This document shows positions 6,458 through 29,369 of a stretch of DNA of 64,000 nucleotides, one piece after another. The translations under genes were made by a program, and so were the position numbers. The stretch is from an uncultured Candidatus Saccharibacteria bacterium (GTDB taxonomy: Bacteria > Patescibacteriota > Saccharimonadia > Saccharimonadales > JAGQNK01). Position 1 is the stretch's first letter. Every line of letters begins with the position of its first letter. Below the pieces are notes generated by a model, which did no database searches, was not told where the DNA came from, and worked only from the letters and a program-made list of their open reading frames with translations. Location of the stretch: positions 32,746 through 96,745 of the forward strand of contig CAZWRG010000002.1 in NCBI GenBank assembly GCA_964636355.1, read 5' to 3'.

Positions 6458-7642
6458 ATGGATTTAGATGTAAAACAATTGGCCCTGGCTGTCAAAGCAA
6501 TCGCTGAGGAAAAGAATCTGCCAGCTGATACTGTGCAAGAAGTCGTTGAGCAGGCGCTGGCGGCTGCCTATAAGCGTGATTATGGCGACCGTGAACAGGA
6601 AGTGCGAATCAGCATGAATGTTCATAGCGGTGAGGTTGATGCTTATGTGACCAAAGAAGTCGTTGAGCGGGTTGGTGATGAACACTTTGAAATCAGCTTA
6701 AAAGACGCTCAGGTTATGAAAAAGAACGCCAAAGTTGGTGATGAAATTGAAGTTCACCAAAAAGTAGAAAACTTTGGACGTGTCGCTGCTCAAACTGCCA
6801 AGCAGGTTGTACTTCAAAGACTGCGAGAGGCGGAGCGTGAGATCATCGTTGATGAGTACGAGGACAAAATCGGCACGGTTATCAACGGTATTGTTGGTCG
6901 GGTAGAGGGCCGAATTGTACGAGTTGACCTCGGTAAAGCTCAGGGAATTATGCCGATGAGCGAACAGATTCAAGGTGAAAGATATTATCCTGGGCAGCGC
7001 CTAAAAGTCTACTTAAAAGATGTTGAACGAGGCATGCGAGGCCCGCAGTTGGTGGTGTCCAGGGGCAATACTGAATTCGTGGAGTGGCTATTTAGGGCCG
7101 AAGTTCCGGAGATGGAAACTGGCGCCGTAGAAATTAGTGGTATTTCGCGTGAAGCTGGCGTGCGCAGCAAGATTGCAGTTCGCAGCACAGTTCAAGGCGT
7201 GGATCCGGTTGGTACATTTGTGGGCGGTCACGGCACTCGCGTAAATGCGGTGATGAGTGAAATTGGCGAACAGGAAAAGATTGACATTGTAGTTTGGGAC
7301 GAAGATCCAAAAACTTACATCGTTAACGCCTTAAGTCCAACCAAAGTTGATAAGGTGGAGCTTGATGAGGCTAATAAAAAAGCTAAAGTTACTGTTCCCG
7401 AGGATCAGCTAAGTATTGCCATTGGTAAGGGCGGTCAAAATGTTCGACTGGCTAGCAAGCTGACCGGATATGAGATCGATATCAACTCGTCACAATCTGA
7501 TCAGCCGCTGGATGATAAAGCTCCAGCTGATGTTAAGCCAGCTAAACCAGCTGGTCCACAACCACTTGCCGGTCCAAAGCTTAAGAAAAAAGAACAACTC
7601 GAAAGCAGCCTACTGGAAGCTATCGAAGAACACGGCGAATAG
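6458..7642 (+). CDS. nusA: transcription termination/antitermination factor NusA
   Basis: N-terminal domain plus S1 and KH regions recognisable (GRVAAQTAKQVVLQRLREAERE, QLSIAIGKGGQNVRLASKLTGYEIDI). SD aaggag lies upstream. Confidence 0.9.
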   Translation: MDLDVKQLALAVKAIAEEKNLPADTVQEVVEQALAAAYKRDYGDREQEVRISMNVHSGEVDAYVTKEVVERVGDEHFEISLKDAQVMKKNAKVGDEIEVHQKVENFGRVAAQTAKQVVLQRLREAEREIIVDEYEDKIGTVINGIVGRVEGRIVRVDLGKAQGIMPMSEQIQGERYYPGQRLKVYLKDVERGMRGPQLVVSRGNTEFVEWLFRAEVPEMETGAVEISGISREAGVRSKIAVRSTVQGVDPVGTFVGGHGTRVNAVMSEIGEQEKIDIVVWDEDPKTYIVNALSPTKVDKVELDEANKKAKVTVPEDQLSIAIGKGGQNVRLASKLTGYEIDINSSQSDQPLDDKAPADVKPAKPAGPQPLAGPKLKKKEQLESSLLEAIEEHGE

Positions 7643-7647
7643 ATCAA

Positions 7648-7869
7648 GTGTCGGAACGTGACCCGGAGTTAGAATGGCGCTTGGCATATATGACTACCTA
7701 TCGTCCTGATATGTTGGCGGATGATATCGAATTTGTTGAAGAGGCTATACAAATGGATGTAGATTTCGAGCCATTCCGGCAGGTTGGCAACGTTGATAGG
7801 TTGTTGCTAGCTGCGGCAAATCTGGCGGCGGCTGTAAAAAATATGCGACAGCAAGGCTTGGATCCCTAA
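7648..7869 (+). CDS. hypothetical small acidic protein (GTG start)
   Basis: 73-aa ORF directly after nusA. No clear SD and no recognised motif. Confidence 0.3.
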   Translation: MSERDPELEWRLAYMTTYRPDMLADDIEFVEEAIQMDVDFEPFRQVGNVDRLLLAAANLAAAVKNMRQQGLDP

Positions 7870-7917
7870 AAGTATCTTTTATTTGAAATTATCACACTTG
7901 GCCAATATCCTCATGAT

Positions 7918-7956
7918 TTAGCACTCTTGACTTGGGAGTGCTAATTTTGTTACTAT
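7918..7956 (+). promoter_or_regulatory. perfect CIRCE inverted repeat overlapping the clpC promoter
   Basis: TTAGCACTC (7918-7926), N9, GAGTGCTAA (7936-7944). The N9 spacer contains TTGACT (7927-7932), and TACTAT (7951-7956) follows 18 nt later. Confidence 0.8.
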
Positions 7957-8028
7957 GTATTTGTGACAATTTACGCTGAATATGAGAATACGATTCTTTT
8001 ATAATAAACGGTGGAGGGATGAATAAAT

Positions 8029-10530
8029 ATGACACCAAACTCATCTGATTTCCAAGAATTTTTGAACCATTTAACTGATAATGCTCTGCAAAGTTTAAAG
8101 CACGCCGATGCGATTGCTAGAAGCTTTGGCAGTGCTTATGTGGGCACTGAGCACTTGTTGCTGGGAGTCTTGGCTCAAGACACCAGCATGGGCTCCAAGC
8201 TTTTAGAAGGTGCTGGAGTAACTTTGGACCGAGCGCAGATGGCGCTTAATCTAACACCTAAAACTTTGGTCATTAATATGGGAGCCAAAGGTCTGAGCGA
8301 GACAGCCAAGCTAACTCTTAGGATGGCCTATGATGTGGCTCAAGATTTTAATCAGGAATTTTGCGGCACAGAGCATATTTTATATAGTGTGCTGTCGCAG
8401 AAAAATGCCCGGGCGACGGTTCTGCTTAGGGATATGAAGGTTAATGTTGATGGGTTGATGACCGAACTTGAGCAATTTCTAAATCGCCAACAATATGAAA
8501 GTGGCGGTCAGGGAGCTTCGGACAGTCGGCGCAAGTCTAAAAAACAGAAAAAAACGGCACTAGATTTCTTTGGCACAGATCTAACTGCTCAAGCCAGAGA
8601 TGGCAAGCTGGATCCGGTGGTCGGGCGTGAGGCTCAAATTCGCCGGGTAGTTACTATTTTGAACCGTCGAACAAAAAATAATCCAGTTCTAATTGGAGAG
8701 CCAGGGGTTGGTAAAACCGCGATTGCCGAAGGTTTAGCACAACGAATTGTAGCCGAGGAAGTGCCTGATAGCTTGCTTGAAAAACGAATAATTATGCTTG
8801 ACCTGGCCGGAATGATTGCCGGGACCAAATATCGTGGTGAATTTGAAGAGCGGCTTAAAAAAGTTATGGCTGAGCTGGAGAGTGACAACAAAACAATTGT
8901 CTTTATTGATGAGCTTCACTTGATTGTGGGCGCCGGCGCAGCCGAGGGGGCCATGGATGCTGGAAATATCTTAAAACCAGCTCTAGCCCGCGGGAAAATT
9001 CAAATGATTGGCGCTACAACCACGGCTGAATATACTAAGCATATTGAAAAGGATTCAGCCTTAGAGCGCAGATTCCAGCCAATTCAAGTGCCCGAGGCTA
9101 CCAACGCTGAAACTCTGGCCATCCTTAAAGGCCTCCGCAAACACTACGAAGAATTCCACGGAGTTACAGTTAGCGATGAAGTTTTAGAAGACACTGTAAC
9201 TTTGGCCAAAAGATATATAAATGATCGATTCATGCCTGATAAAGCCATTGATCTGCTCGATGAAACGGCGGCTCATTTACGGGTTGATAAGGGCAAAACA
9301 CCGCCCGAAGCACGTAAATTGCAAAAGGAATTAAAGCTAGTCAATGTTCGGATTGAAGAGGCGGTTGATAACGAAGATTATGAAAAAGCTGCCAAGCACA
9401 AACAGCGAGCGTCGCAGATAAAAGAGCAGCTTGATCAGCTTGAGCAAGATGGCAAAACTGCTAATAGCCTGACAGTTACCAGTGAGGATATTGCCGAAGT
9501 TGTGGCTCGTATTACCGGAGTTCCGGTCACTAAGGTCATACGTTCGGAAGCAAAATATTTGTTAAACCTGGAAAAGAATCTCCGAAAATTCGTGATTGGC
9601 CAGGATGAGGCGGTCGAGGCGGTGTCTAAGGCTATTCGTCGAAACCGAGTTGGCATTGGCAGCAGTAAACGTCCAATTGGCTCGTTTATCTTCTTGGGTC
9701 CAACCGGTGTTGGTAAGACTGAGCTAGCGAGAATACTAGCCAGAGAATTCTTTGGCTCGGAAGATTCGCTGGTCAAGATTGATATGAGTGAATTCGGCGA
9801 GCATCATAACGTTTCACGTCTGGTTGGAGCACCGGCTGGTTACGTTGGTTATGACGAAGGCGGCCAGCTGACTGATAAAATTCGCCGACAACCATATAGC
9901 TTGGTGTTATTTGACGAGATCGAAAAAGCCCACCCGGAAGTCTTTAATATGCTGCTTCAGATTTTAGAAGACGGTGTGTTGACTGACGCTAAGGGCCGAA
10001 AGATCGATTTCACAAACACTGTCGTAATCATGACCAGTAACATCGGTGCCGAGAAGCTGCAAAAAGAAGCTGAGCTTGGTTTCCACGCCATAGACAGAAG
10101 CGACATGAACAACCTTGATAGCCTGCACAGTATCAATAAAAGCAAAGTTTTTGATGAGCTTAAAAAGATGATGCGGCCAGAGCTACTAAATCGAATTGAT
10201 AAAACAATTGTCTTCAGAGCGCTTACTAAAAAAGATGTGCTTAGGATTCTAGATCTACAGATTGATGAACTCCGTCAGCGTTTGATTAAGCACGGCATAG
10301 ATTTACAGCTGTCCAGATCTGCCAAAAATCATCTGCTGGAAGAAGGCTATGATTCGCATAATGGTGTGCGACCGCTAAGAAGGTTAATCGCCGATACTAT
10401 CGAGGATCATATTGCTCACGAATTGCTTGATAATAAATATCATAAAGGTCACATCATAAAAGTAAATGCTCGAGGTGGTAAGTTGGTTTATTCAGCCGAA
10501 TCTGAAGTCAAGCCTCAAGCAGTAGTGTAA
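8029..10530 (+). CDS. clpC: ClpC-type AAA+ chaperone ATPase
   Basis: Two Clp_N repeats, two Walker A sites ([16 protein letters not shown]) and a UVR-like linker ([20 protein letters not shown]); 833 aa. Confidence 0.9.
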
Positions 10531-10539
10531 ACTAAAACC

Positions 10540-11469
10540 ATGAACAAAATTGCCGGTTTAGCATTTTGGTTGATCGCTATCGGTCTGCTTGTAGTGTCGG
10601 TTTTGGGCTTTTTGAATCGCCAGGAAATATATGATTGGTGGCGGCTAAGAGATTATTCGCCGCCGCCAGAAATCGCTCAGCTGGCCACCGACACTACCAT
10701 GCAAGACAAGGCTCGGCGTTTGTTTTATGTGTATCGGCCAGAGCTTAATGATCGTCTGCAGTTTAATCAAAACTGTACTCATTTTGAAGAAACCATTGTG
10801 CTGGGCTGTTATGTTTCGAACCTGGGTATATATTTGTTTGATGTCGATGATCCGCGGCTGCACGGTGTTCAGCAAGTCACCGCCGCTCATGAGCTGCTAC
10901 ATGCGGCTTATGATCGGCTGGGCGCAGAAGAGAAAGCTCGGGTTGATAAACTAACGGCTGACACTTTTGCTTCGCTTAATAATCAGCGAATCATAAGAAC
11001 AATTGAAAATTATAAGTCACGCGATCCGTCGGTAGTCCCCAATGAGCTGCACTCTATATTGGCGACCGAAGTTCGAGAGTTGCCTGAAGAATTAGAAGAA
11101 TATTATAAAAAGTATTTTTCTAATCGCTTAAAAATTGTCGAATATTCTGAAAAATACGAGTCAATTCTCACTGAAAGAAAAACCAAAGCCGTTACTTTAG
11201 AGGCTCAAATTACGGGGCTAAAAAACGATATCGAATTGACCGAAGCAGAGCTTAATCAGCAACGAAACAGATTACAGCAAGACAGAGCCAATGTGACTAA
11301 CCAACAGCAAGCTCGGGCATATAATCAGCGAGTCGAAGCCTACAACGCCAGCATCAAAGAGCTGAACAGCATGATTGACCGTCACAATAAATTAATCGAA
11401 GAATACAAACGAAACGCCTTTGAAGCTCAGGAATTGTACGAGGCGATTGATAGTCGACCAACCATATAA
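10540..11469 (+). CDS. membrane-anchored protein with HExxH motif and C-terminal coiled coil
   Basis: N-terminal TM helix (LAFWLIAIGLLVVSVLGFL), AAHELLHAAY, and a Q/N/E-rich heptad-like tail. Confidence 0.5.
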   Translation: MNKIAGLAFWLIAIGLLVVSVLGFLNRQEIYDWWRLRDYSPPPEIAQLATDTTMQDKARRLFYVYRPELNDRLQFNQNCTHFEETIVLGCYVSNLGIYLFDVDDPRLHGVQQVTAAHELLHAAYDRLGAEEKARVDKLTADTFASLNNQRIIRTIENYKSRDPSVVPNELHSILATEVRELPEELEEYYKKYFSNRLKIVEYSEKYESILTERKTKAVTLEAQITGLKNDIELTEAELNQQRNRLQQDRANVTNQQQARAYNQRVEAYNASIKELNSMIDRHNKLIEEYKRNAFEAQELYEAIDSRPTI

Positions 11470-11505
11470 TTAGAAATTGCTGGTCGATGAACTATAATTA
11501 AAGGG

Positions 11506-12855
11506 ATGGCTAAAAAACCTTCGGTTAAATATGTCTGCAGTAACTGCGGCGCGGAAAGTAATTCCTGGAGCGGCCGTTGCTATAATTGCGGCGAATGGAA
11601 CACGCTTGAAGAGCAGCTTTCATCAGTAGTAATTAATAATGTAAAATCGGCGGGTCGAACCTTGCAGCCGCAATCGGTCAGCAAATCAATATCCAAAGAT
11701 CATCATCGTCTGCCAATTGGTATTAGCGAAGTCGATAACGTTTTAGGCGGCGGAATTGTCGCCGGCAGTGTCAATTTGATTGCTGGACAGCCGGGAATTG
11801 GTAAAAGTACTTTGTTGCTGCAAATGGCTTACGAGCTTAGTAAGTCACAACCAGTGCTGTATGTTAGTGCTGAAGAATCGGCTCACCAGATCGGCATTCG
11901 AGCAGAGCGACTTGGCACAAACAGTGATAAGCTTCAGTTAGTTACCAGCACCAGCGCTGATGATATTGCCTCAACGATTGCGGCTGGTGATTATAAATTA
12001 GTTGTAGTTGATTCAATCCAGACGATTTCTTGCGAATCAATTGCCTCAGCAGCCGGCAACGTTAGCCAAATAACTAACAGCACACAGCTATTGACGGCAG
12101 CCGCCAAGCAATCTGACACAGCAATTATAATTGTTGGCCACGTCACTAAAGAAGGCTCAATTGCTGGACCGAAGGTTTTAGAGCATGTGGTCGATGTGGT
12201 ACTTCAACTAGAAGGCGATCGCTACGGCGGCTTCAAAATTTTAAGAGCCGTGAAAAACCGCTATGGATCAACCAACGAAGCCGGAATTTTTGAAATGGTC
12301 GACAATGGTCTAAAGCCGGTAGCCAATCCTTCAGCCGCGCTGCTGGCAGAGCGTAAAATCACTGACGGCTCGATAGTTTTAGCCACACTGGAGGGCACGC
12401 GGCCGCTGCTGGTTGAAGTTCAAGCCCTAGTTAACAAGACAAGCTACGGCTATCCAAAAAGAGCGGCCAGCGGAATTGATCTTAATCGAGTAAATCTTTT
12501 GGTGGCCATGCTGGAGCGTCGGACCAAGTTAAACCTAGCCGATAAAGACGTTTACATAAACATCGTTGGTGGAATTAAACTTACCGAACCGGCAGCCGAT
12601 TTAGCGGTGGCCATGGCGATTGCTTCAGCTACCAAAGGCCTGCAGCTCAAACAAAACGCGGTGGTGTTTGGTGAGCTTGGTTTGGCTGGCGAGGTTCGTC
12701 ATGTGCCGTTTTTGGATAAACGGGTTGCTGAGGCCAAGAAGCTGGGCTTTGAGCTGGCAATTGGACCGGAGATTCGCTCTGGTAAAAAACCAGCCAAATA
12801 TCACGGCGTAAGTGATGTTAGATCAGCTCTAAATACATTTTTAGAGAAAAGTTAA
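11506..12855 (+). CDS. radA: DNA repair protein RadA/Sms
   Basis: Zinc finger CSNCGAESNSWSGRCYNCGEWNT, Walker A GQPGIGKST, KNRYG motif and a Lon-like C-terminal domain. Confidence 0.9.
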   Translation: MAKKPSVKYVCSNCGAESNSWSGRCYNCGEWNTLEEQLSSVVINNVKSAGRTLQPQSVSKSISKDHHRLPIGISEVDNVLGGGIVAGSVNLIAGQPGIGKSTLLLQMAYELSKSQPVLYVSAEESAHQIGIRAERLGTNSDKLQLVTSTSADDIASTIAAGDYKLVVVDSIQTISCESIASAAGNVSQITNSTQLLTAAAKQSDTAIIIVGHVTKEGSIAGPKVLEHVVDVVLQLEGDRYGGFKILRAVKNRYGSTNEAGIFEMVDNGLKPVANPSAALLAERKITDGSIVLATLEGTRPLLVEVQALVNKTSYGYPKRAASGIDLNRVNLLVAMLERRTKLNLADKDVYINIVGGIKLTEPAADLAVAMAIASATKGLQLKQNAVVFGELGLAGEVRHVPFLDKRVAEAKKLGFELAIGPEIRSGKKPAKYHGVSDVRSALNTFLEKS

Positions 12856-28142: not shown

Positions 28143-28700
28143 ATGAGTATAGAGTTCGATTCACAACCAGTCGTATCATTGAGAGCCGCATCGCCAGAGC
28201 AACAGCCCCAGCCGCGATTTGGCAGTCGCCTGACGCGTCCTGCTTTCTGGGCTCTGGCAACTAATCAAATTAATAAAATCTATGAGGTATTTGAGCAGAC
28301 TGGCCACGACGAAGTAATGTTAACAAACCCCACGATTAGCCCCTTTGTGCCAGCTGTTTCTGTTACTCGCGACCAAGACGGAGGCGGAAGTATATTAATA
28401 ACCTTTAAATCTATGGTTCGTCCATCCCGAAGAGAAAAAGAACTCCAGGTTCATTTTGCCAGAGATAATCATGAGTTAGATGACAACCACACCGTAAACG
28501 AAATATCCCAAATAAATTGTCATCGACGCGAATTTAGTGTTGGCTTTGGTAGGCCGATTTCTCATCAAGAGTTACACATTGACAATCAAGGTAAATTCAC
28601 CGGCAAATTGAGCCCAATTTCCGTTTTAATTGGGCTGGAAAGAGCCGTAATGTCCAGAAAACAGCTAAACCCACCAGCCGCACGGCAAGTTGAGCTATAA
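28143..28700 (+). CDS. hypothetical protein, 185 aa, inserted between tig and clpP
   Basis: Uninterrupted ORF with no recognised motif. Confidence 0.45.
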   Translation: MSIEFDSQPVVSLRAASPEQQPQPRFGSRLTRPAFWALATNQINKIYEVFEQTGHDEVMLTNPTISPFVPAVSVTRDQDGGGSILITFKSMVRPSRREKELQVHFARDNHELDDNHTVNEISQINCHRREFSVGFGRPISHQELHIDNQGKFTGKLSPISVLIGLERAVMSRKQLNPPAARQVEL

Positions 28701-28716
28701 CAAATTAGCGCCAAAA

Positions 28717-28754
28717 TTAGCACTCTTGACACGAGACTGCTAATTTCTTACAAT
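28717..28754 (+). promoter_or_regulatory. CIRCE-like inverted repeat (1 mismatch) overlapping a consensus clpP promoter
   Basis: TTAGCACTC (28717-28725), N9, GACTGCTAA (28735-28743). TTGACA (28726-28731), N17, TACAAT (28749-28754). The clpP ATG is at 28764. Confidence 0.75.
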
Positions 28755-28763
28755 TAAAGTACT

Positions 28764-29369
28764 ATGAACAAACCAACCAACGCTACATTGATTCCAACAG
28801 TTATTGAACAAGACGGCCGCGTGGAGCGAGCCTATGATATTTACTCCCGCCTATTAAAAGATAGGATTATCTTTTTGGGTGATGGCGTTAATGAGCACAC
28901 CGCTAATTTAATTGTTGCTCAGCTGCTGTTTTTGGACAACGAAGATACTAACAAAGATATATTCTTATACATCAATAGCCCTGGCGGCAGCGTATATGAC
29001 GCTTTGGCGATTTACGACACCATGAAGTATGTCAAATCAGACATCCAAACCGTGGGGATTGGTGTTCAGGCCAGCGCCGCGGCTTTTCTGCTAAGCTCAG
29101 GAACCAAAGGTAAGAGGTTCTTATTGCCTCACTCGACGGTTATGATTCATCAGCCAAGTTCAGGCACGCGCGGTAAGGTCACCGATCAGGAAATTGACCT
29201 TAGAGAATCGCTACGGGTAAAGAAACTACTGGAAGAAATTATGGCCAAAAACACTGGTCAAAAAGTATCCCGGATTCACGATGACATGGAACGTGACAAA
29301 TGGCTGACCGCTGAAGAAGCCAAAGATTACGGCATTGTCGACAAGGTTATCAAAACACCACCAAAGTAG
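28764..29369 (+). CDS. clpP: ATP-dependent Clp protease proteolytic subunit
   Basis: [24 protein letters not shown] and the MIHQP catalytic region. Confidence 0.95.

Follow-up and report, generated by a model that had tools for sequence, protein, structure and literature searches.

Does the Clp proteolytic system of Saccharibacteria stand under the control of the repressor HrcA? The question is raised by a palindrome ahead of clpC in the stretch of DNA analysed here (64 kb in its whole length, referred to below as the window). The first-pass annotation had read this palindrome as a perfect CIRCE element, i.e., the operator of HrcA, and from it, together with a second site at clpP, had suggested that Clp proteolysis has been drawn into an HrcA-type regulon in this lineage.

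The window has a G+C content of ~45%. Its ClpC is 77–80% identical to that of GTDB representatives labelled Saccharibacteria or Saccharimonadales, and the nearest named ClpP proteins, at 85–90% identity, come from bacteria labelled Saccharibacteria, Saccharimonadales or "Patescibacteria group". In addition, two stretches of gene order, nusA-clpC-orf309-radA and tig-clpP-rpoB, are kept with Saccharibacteria relatives. The window accordingly belongs to a genome of the Saccharimonadales (Saccharibacteria, TM7).

Two CIRCE operators with embedded putative promoters

The two sites and the genes behind them comprise the following features:

7918..7944, no strand assigned: CIRCE operator, a perfect 9-N9-9 inverted repeat, exact match to the consensus
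7927..7932, + strand: -35 hexamer TTGACT at the start of the CIRCE N9 spacer (promoter scan)
7951..7956, + strand: -10 hexamer TACTAT (promoter scan), an extended -10 with TG at 7948-7949
8013..8017, + strand: Shine-Dalgarno sequence GGAGG of clpC (direct sequence reading)
8029..10530, + strand: clpC, 833 aa, with an LGF ClpP-docking loop and two Walker A motifs (Pfam, NCBIfam, motifs)
28717..28743, no strand assigned: second CIRCE, overlapping the putative clpP promoter, with 1 mismatch; its right arm reads GACTGCTAA (pattern search)
28726..28731, + strand: -35 hexamer TTGACA, inside the clpP CIRCE spacer (promoter scan, 11/12)
28749..28754, + strand: -10 hexamer TACAAT for clpP (promoter scan)
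28764..29369, + strand: clpP, 201 aa (Pfam CLP_protease, E 1.5e-76; NCBIfam)

In a pattern search, TTAGCACTCTTGACTTGGGAGTGCTAA at 7918-7944 agrees at 18/18 positions with the CIRCE consensus TTAGCACTC-N9-GAGTGCTAA, as quoted in PMC3842655. Spelled out by arms and spacer, the site reads TTAGCACTC TTGACTTGG GAGTGCTAA, and it ends 84 nt before the clpC start. With up to 3 mismatches allowed, CIRCE gave 0 matches in 100 dinucleotide-preserving shuffles (chance expectation 0). That is, the perfect CIRCE described by the first-pass annotation stands. The clpP site that it had placed at 28717 is real as well: TTAGCACTCTTGACACGAGACTGCTAA at 28717-28743 agrees at 17/18 positions (spelled out, TTAGCACTC TTGACACGA GACTGCTAA) and sits 20 nt 5' of clpP, with the same promoter layout as at clpC. 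Its one mismatch falls on an arm position that is normally invariant, a point against the HrcA reading. A third CIRCE was found nowhere in the 64-kb window, neither at up to 5 mismatches nor with spacers of 7–11 nt, and only the clpC and clpP sites came up.

Both operators overlap putative sigma-70-type promoters, which we have identified by consensus and conservation. At clpC, the promoter scan gives TTGACT-18 nt-TACTAT with 9/12 matches, which bears out the earlier placement of a -35 hexamer in the N9 spacer; at clpP, it gives TTGACA-17 nt-TACAAT with 11/12 matches. In both cases the N9 spacer contains the -35, while the stretch from -35 to -10 is taken up by the palindrome's right arm. Other than this, the upstream regions of clpC and clpP hold further repeats only as short pairs at chance level.

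The clpP ATG lies 9 nt past the -10 hexamer, without a Shine-Dalgarno sequence (28749-28766). Since the -10 ends so close to the ATG, we predict a clpP mRNA with no leader or almost none. The sequences suggest that some members of the lineage transcribe clpP and clpC, both stress genes, as leaderless mRNAs. Several clpC orthologues start 17-21 nt past CIRCE (L148, L151, L153, L158, L165, L166, L185, L193 and L194).

As to the gene itself, the ORF at 8029-10530 is of the ClpC type and not ClpB, because it has a UVR-type middle domain, a length of 833 aa and an LGF docking loop. Its Pfam architecture runs Clp_N, AAA, AAA_lid_9, a UVR-type short middle domain, AAA_2 and ClpB_D2-small, and the LGF tripeptide for ClpP docking corresponds to residues 683-685.

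Conservation of the operator at clpC and clpP

We have collected 80 metagenome loci with ClpC orthologues of 73-87% amino acid identity, picked on protein similarity alone. CIRCE (≤3 mismatches) is found within 400 nt 5' of clpC in 77 of the 80 loci, and 33 of these sites are exact. As for the three loci without a complete element, two have no usable upstream DNA, while the third (L192) has a partial operator. The L192 contig opens with ...GAGTGCTAA followed by the -10, so it is severed inside the operator. That is, CIRCE is present at clpC in 78/78 assessable orthologues, of which 77 are complete and one is cut by the contig end. Outside clpC such sites are scarce: the 1,088,711 bp of clpC loci contain 78 sites at ≤3 mismatches, 77 at clpC and one at hrcA (L172).

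For clpP, the sample consisted of relatives with 83-91% identity to the window ClpP and covered the contexts of five different ClpP proteins. In all five protein-selected orthologue groups, CIRCE (≤3 mismatches) lies 10-40 nt before the annotated clpP start. An independent 1.2-kb Logan contig that encodes an identical ClpP has exactly the same one-mismatch clpP CIRCE as the window. A viral contig collection contained two distant ClpP relatives (56% and 32% identity), and the former carries no CIRCE.

Overall, the operator is near-universal at clpC and clpP in Saccharimonadales. Since relatives keep it almost universally, the lineage appears to control Clp proteolysis via HrcA, and the counts at clpC (78/78) and clpP (5/5 groups) thus support the regulon that the first-pass annotation had suggested.

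Other genes carrying the operator

A genome-collection scan was made over one genome per GTDB species with the pattern TTAGCACTCTTGAC-N4-GANTGCTAA. It gave at least 119 loci, mostly from Saccharibacteria and other Patescibacteria, in which the first downstream ORF was clustered and representatives were checked with NCBIfam and Pfam. In Saccharibacteria-labelled loci, the genes downstream of the operator are:

clpC: at least 23 loci
dnaK: at least 22 loci
hrcA: at least 9 loci
clpP: at least 7 loci
hsp20: at least 3 loci
gene class unsettled by clustering: 5 loci among the matches listed

Two of the five unsettled loci are dnaK and clpC according to tblastn, and the rest end at the edge of the locus or contig. 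The dnaJ gene of Saccharibacteria carries CIRCE too. The first-pass annotation had asked whether groESL and dnaK carry CIRCE too; in Saccharibacteria loci dnaK does, as do hrcA, dnaJ and hsp20. In other Patescibacteria the operator is found chiefly at hrcA among the matches listed. The operator-bearing clpC orthologues include some as distant as 44-52% identity, from mammal-associated lineages such as Nanosyncoccus, which indicates that the link between operator and clpC is old within the phylum.

In Saccharibacteria, dnaK usually has two tandem CIRCE copies (L003, L008, L009, L013, L020, L023, L024, L028, L031 and others). The first copy holds the -35, and the second, e.g., TTGGCACTC-N9-GAGTGCTAA, lies just 3' of the -10. 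The single CIRCE at clpC and clpP, compared with two at dnaK, may mean that dnaK is repressed more tightly.

The Saccharibacteria loci yielded no groES or groEL gene with CIRCE. By tblastn, GroEL and GroES were found only in loci from outside Saccharibacteria, the loci being a non-random genome sample, and the literature that we searched made no statement either way on GroEL in Saccharibacteria.

HrcA homologues of the lineage

The 64-kb window contains no hrcA. Among relatives, HrcA homologues are encoded at L113:1638-2430 and L172:4384-5100, and also in L030, L037, L067, L073, L086, L106 and L109. The Saccharibacteria proteins match TIGR00331 at E values of 1e-38 to 1e-51, with 132-176 bits, below the NCBIfam equivalog cut-off of 197. 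In Saccharibacteria and other Patescibacteria, HrcA is 225-249 aa long and lacks ~100 central residues compared with a 360-aa streptococcal HrcA ORF. PF01628 is covered only from profile positions ~83-106 to 215, i.e., in its distal half, and two of the three lineage proteins tested match TIGR00331 in two separate stretches. The full HrcA architecture (TIGR00331 / PF01628 + PF03444; winged helix plus complete C-terminal domain, about 340 aa) is not found in them. Judged from their sequences, these proteins are clear homologues of HrcA with a truncated architecture.

The winged-helix region aligns closely with that of Thermotoga maritima HrcA (1STZ), and the recognition region, SSATIR...QPHTSAGRxPTDKGYR, is common with canonical HrcA. 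The ~100 absent residues are presumably the inserted dimerising domain of the T. maritima protein (1STZ). Because this presumed dimerising insert is absent, the binding mode of HrcA is not guaranteed here.

The hrcA genes of the lineage are preceded by a CIRCE of their own. On two contigs, hrcA and CIRCE-clpC occur together: L113 has the order nusA, CIRCE-hrcA, CIRCE-clpC, and in L172 hrcA and clpC are 5.5 kb apart. The first-pass annotation had named two findings that would speak against its reading, a genome without any hrcA homologue and CIRCE-like repeats at many unrelated promoters. In the relatives, hrcA homologues are present, and no unrelated gene carries the operator in Saccharibacteria-labelled loci among the matches listed.

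These proteins also bear on a different reading of the site, namely that a regulator other than HrcA reads the operator, or that the truncated HrcA-like protein acts in an altered manner (e.g., non-thermosensing or activating). The central deletion, the scores below the equivalog cut-off and the lack of hrcA in the window would fit such a reading. On the other hand, the recognition region is strongly conserved relative to canonical HrcA, the CIRCE ahead of hrcA is the classic pattern of autoregulation, and the overlap of the operator with the -35 and the spacer suits repression, not activation. To our knowledge, no family other than HrcA binds CIRCE. We therefore consider this reading unlikely.

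The operators of other Clp regulators were also searched for. The CtsR heptad (A/G)GTCAAA-NAN-(A/G)GTCAAA has 7 matches (≤3 mismatches) in the window against 9.4 expected, none of them in the promoter regions 7640-8030 or 28690-28770, in agreement with the earlier statement that no CtsR-type heptad is seen. The genes ctsR, mcsA and mcsB are absent upstream of clpC, where nusA and a 73-aa ORF are found instead. A ClgR-type palindrome, searched for by its CGC-N5-GCG core (a weak test), is found neither in 6577-8288 nor in 28501-28876. Since no CtsR box is detectable, the HrcA operator would be the sole operator of a known type at clpC and clpP.

Operator and promoter are conserved together

We have calculated a column-wise information profile over 77 unique clpC upstream regions. 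The CIRCE arms reach ~2 bits per position, and the two A residues immediately 5' of the palindrome are also conserved. The TTGAC in the spacer has 1.3-1.7 bits per position and takes the same spacer position in 70/77 sites, and a TAnnnT hexamer follows 16-19 nt past the -35 in 73/77, so the layout of the window promoter is kept in relatives. In the few loci where TTGAC is displaced within the spacer, the -10 is displaced likewise. The tracking of TTGAC by the -10, together with the confined conservation, is as expected if the operator and the embedded promoter are both selected.

This profile argues against the idea that CIRCE works in RNA, as a stability or translation element of a clpC leader that starts from an upstream promoter-like site at 7883-7911. 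A 9/12 promoter-like match does end at 7911, immediately 5' of the palindrome, and in the classical Bacillus arrangement (B. subtilis dnaK/groE) CIRCE is found at the transcription start or 3' of it. However, the 50 nt 5' of CIRCE reach 0.0-0.3 bits among the 77 relatives and are thus unconserved, unlike the -35 inside the operator and the -10 behind it, and on this ground 7883-7911 has been ruled out as an alternative clpC promoter. At clpP, moreover, the palindrome begins 17 nt past the preceding stop codon (ORF end 28700), and the scan shows no promoter-like site 5' of this palindrome. Since the promoter lies inside the operator, CIRCE would not be transcribed from that promoter, and a role at the RNA level is very unlikely.

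The palindrome could also be mainly an intrinsic terminator of the nusA/orf73 transcript (hairpin plus TTTTGTT), with its likeness to CIRCE being secondary. Actually, a terminator scan flags 7918-7944 with its T-rich tail, and the RNA hairpin is predicted at -14 kcal/mol (z = -3.3). However, the T-run 3' of the palindrome is unconserved (0.2-0.7 bits in 77 relatives), while the arms are kept as the exact CIRCE sequence, beyond what mere pairing would require. The element also stands at clpP, hrcA, dnaK and hsp20, where the upstream surroundings are of many kinds, and a terminator leaves the conserved -35 in the loop and the downstream -10 unexplained. As a main function, termination is thus highly improbable; in the window genome it may at most be a minor, secondary role of the palindrome.

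That the palindrome is a chance or decaying, non-functional sequence can practically be dismissed, as none is expected from the shuffles and every assessable locus keeps the site amid unconserved flanks.

Genes around the two sites

The neighbouring genes in the window are:

7648..7869, + strand: 73-aa ORF between nusA and CIRCE, without a family hit
10540..11469, + strand: 309-aa gene, 9 nt past clpC, with an N-terminal membrane helix, HExxH and a C-terminal coiled coil
11506..12855, + strand: radA (Pfam; synteny)
28143..28700, + strand: 185-aa ORF between trigger factor and clpP, no Pfam/NCBIfam hit

The 309-aa protein (10540-11469) has no Pfam or PDB assignment. Its zinc-peptidase-like HExxH motif reads HELLH and is located at residue 117; across 83 homologues, HExLH is kept without exception. 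Homologues of its gene lie directly 3' of clpC in all loci whose gene order was checked, with radA or clpP next. There is no terminator-like site between clpC and the 309-aa gene, and the latter probably shares the clpC transcript. Its product could be a partner or adaptor of ClpC, or a membrane protease within the CIRCE-controlled transcript. As for radA, the clpC transcript may extend to it as the distal gene, or else it may be driven by a promoter-like site of its own, which the promoter scan places at 11471-11498.

Upstream, clpC is preceded by nusA and then by the 73-aa ORF. This ORF (7648-7869) has no homologue in 199 related loci, and it may be spurious or strain-specific. The possibility that it is an hrcA remnant was rejected, as it has no similarity to HrcA. 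The nusA-clpC spacer varies strongly among relatives, from 0.2 to 2.9 kb, and contains hrcA in L113. At the other site, the interval between trigger factor and clpP holds differing small unannotated ORFs of 54-111 aa in relatives, so that this interval is variable although the genes around it are syntenic.

Proposed regulation

Based on the above analyses, we regard it as quite likely that the 27-bp palindrome is a functional CIRCE for an HrcA-family repressor, and that HrcA blocks RNA polymerase at the clpC and clpP promoters. In the following scheme, the inferred parts are that HrcA binds and represses, that heat induces, where transcription starts and how far the operon extends. An HrcA dimer on the palindrome would cover the -35 and the spacer behind it, and RNA polymerase would be excluded, because the -35 is part of the N9 spacer and the space from there to the -10 is filled by the right arm. 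In this state clpC, and probably also the HExxH gene and radA, would be kept repressed, and the near-identical site at clpP would repress clpP likewise. Under heat or proteotoxic stress HrcA would be inactivated. ClpC and ClpP should then be de-repressed jointly with hrcA, dnaK, dnaJ and hsp20, which have the same operator in the phylum.

In other bacteria HrcA is inactivated through its own thermolability and when chaperones cease to assist it. GroE is the assisting chaperone there, and the heat lability is intrinsic to HrcA (PMC8533110). Since no groES or groEL with CIRCE is found in the Saccharibacteria loci, it may be that GroE titration, as in the classical model, does not apply to this lineage. 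In the transcriptome of TM7x, 'clpB' and clpP change together, both rising (bioRxiv 10.1101/2022.03.25.485537), which is compatible with co-regulation.

A wider proposal is that one HrcA without the insert runs all of proteostasis in Saccharibacteria, and perhaps more widely in Patescibacteria. It would act on DnaK/DnaJ/Hsp20, ClpC-ClpP and the co-transcribed HExxH protein through operators that contain the -35. Neither CtsR nor ClgR nor a heat-shock sigma factor would take part, and GroEL would possibly not be the sensing partner. We put this forward tentatively and think it rather less probable than its contrary. If true, it would be a minimal proteostasis regulon with a single repressor, whose sensing is unlike the GroE-titration model.

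Relation to known systems

The closest known system is the HrcA-CIRCE class I regulon of Bacillus subtilis and many other bacteria. The consensus is identical, dnaK, dnaJ and hrcA are targets in both, the lineage has an HrcA-family repressor behind its own operator, and negative control through promoter overlap is what we propose here. The Saccharibacteria targets differ in that they include clpC and clpP and, in our sample, no groESL; in addition, the -35 is embedded in the operator and the lineage HrcA is without the ~100 central residues.

The Mollicutes provide a precedent. In these genome-reduced bacteria HrcA is the only stress regulator, and CIRCE extends to lon, which encodes an AAA+ protease, and to clpB, which encodes an AAA+ disaggregase (PMC5138195); lon of M. 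pneumoniae carries CIRCE (PMC7737663). Both groups thus have CIRCE at genes of AAA+ proteolysis, as well as tandem CIRCE at dnaK. However, the Mollicutes belong to another phylum, and the genes concerned are those of Lon and ClpB there but of ClpC and ClpP here. Given this precedent, a specialist of heat shock would find the extension unsurprising.

For clpP itself, dual control by CtsR and HrcA has been described in Streptococcus salivarius (Chastanet & Msadek 2003), as far as this work is cited in PMC3842655 (ref. 22). By that account, the S. salivarius clpP promoter resembles the present one in having CIRCE and differs in having a CtsR box next to it, whereas neither clpC nor clpP has a detectable CtsR box here. 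The novelty implied by the first-pass annotation was therefore slightly overstated: the assignment of Clp genes to the regulon is supported, but HrcA/CIRCE at protease genes has already been documented (Mollicutes lon and clpB; S. salivarius clpP).

With the CtsR regulon of Firmicutes (ctsR-mcsA-mcsB-clpC-radA-disA), the lineage shares the linkage of clpC and radA and, in our proposal, clpC and clpP under a repressor in heat stress. Unlike that regulon, it has no CtsR heptad and no ctsR, mcsA or mcsB, and the operator and repressor belong to different families. Similarly, ClgR of Actinobacteria coordinates the transcription of clpC and clpP, as is proposed here, but ClgR activates its targets and has another operator, and no ClgR-like motif (by the weak test above) is seen here.

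Our literature search found no paper that ties HrcA or CIRCE to Saccharibacteria or Patescibacteria. We know of essentially no transcription factor-operator pair described in this ultrasmall, mostly uncultured phylum of episymbionts. The data support a canonical HrcA operator that has apparently become fixed at non-classical targets across a poorly studied phylum. This would give Saccharibacteria a concrete and testable regulon, the first well-supported one there. It would also mean that genome reduction has converged twice, in Mollicutes and in Saccharibacteria, on AAA+ proteolysis inside the HrcA regulon. In practice, the motif of CIRCE with an embedded promoter can help to annotate the stress regulons of metagenome-assembled genomes. 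As Saccharibacteria become accessible to genetics, the promoter itself could also be employed as a compact one that responds to stress. The HrcA without the insert and the HExxH membrane protein linked to clpC are side leads.

Outside Saccharibacteria, CIRCE with embedded TTGAC was also observed ahead of ClpC/ClpB-like genes in Fervidobacterium (L004), Paceibacterota (L007) and Spechtbacteria (L048). In view of these sites, HrcA control of Clp ATPases may have arisen repeatedly or be more widespread. A -35 within the CIRCE spacer occurs also at groEL of cyanobacteria (L027, L074) and at groES of Dehalococcoides (L043), so the embedded layout is not specific to Patescibacteria.
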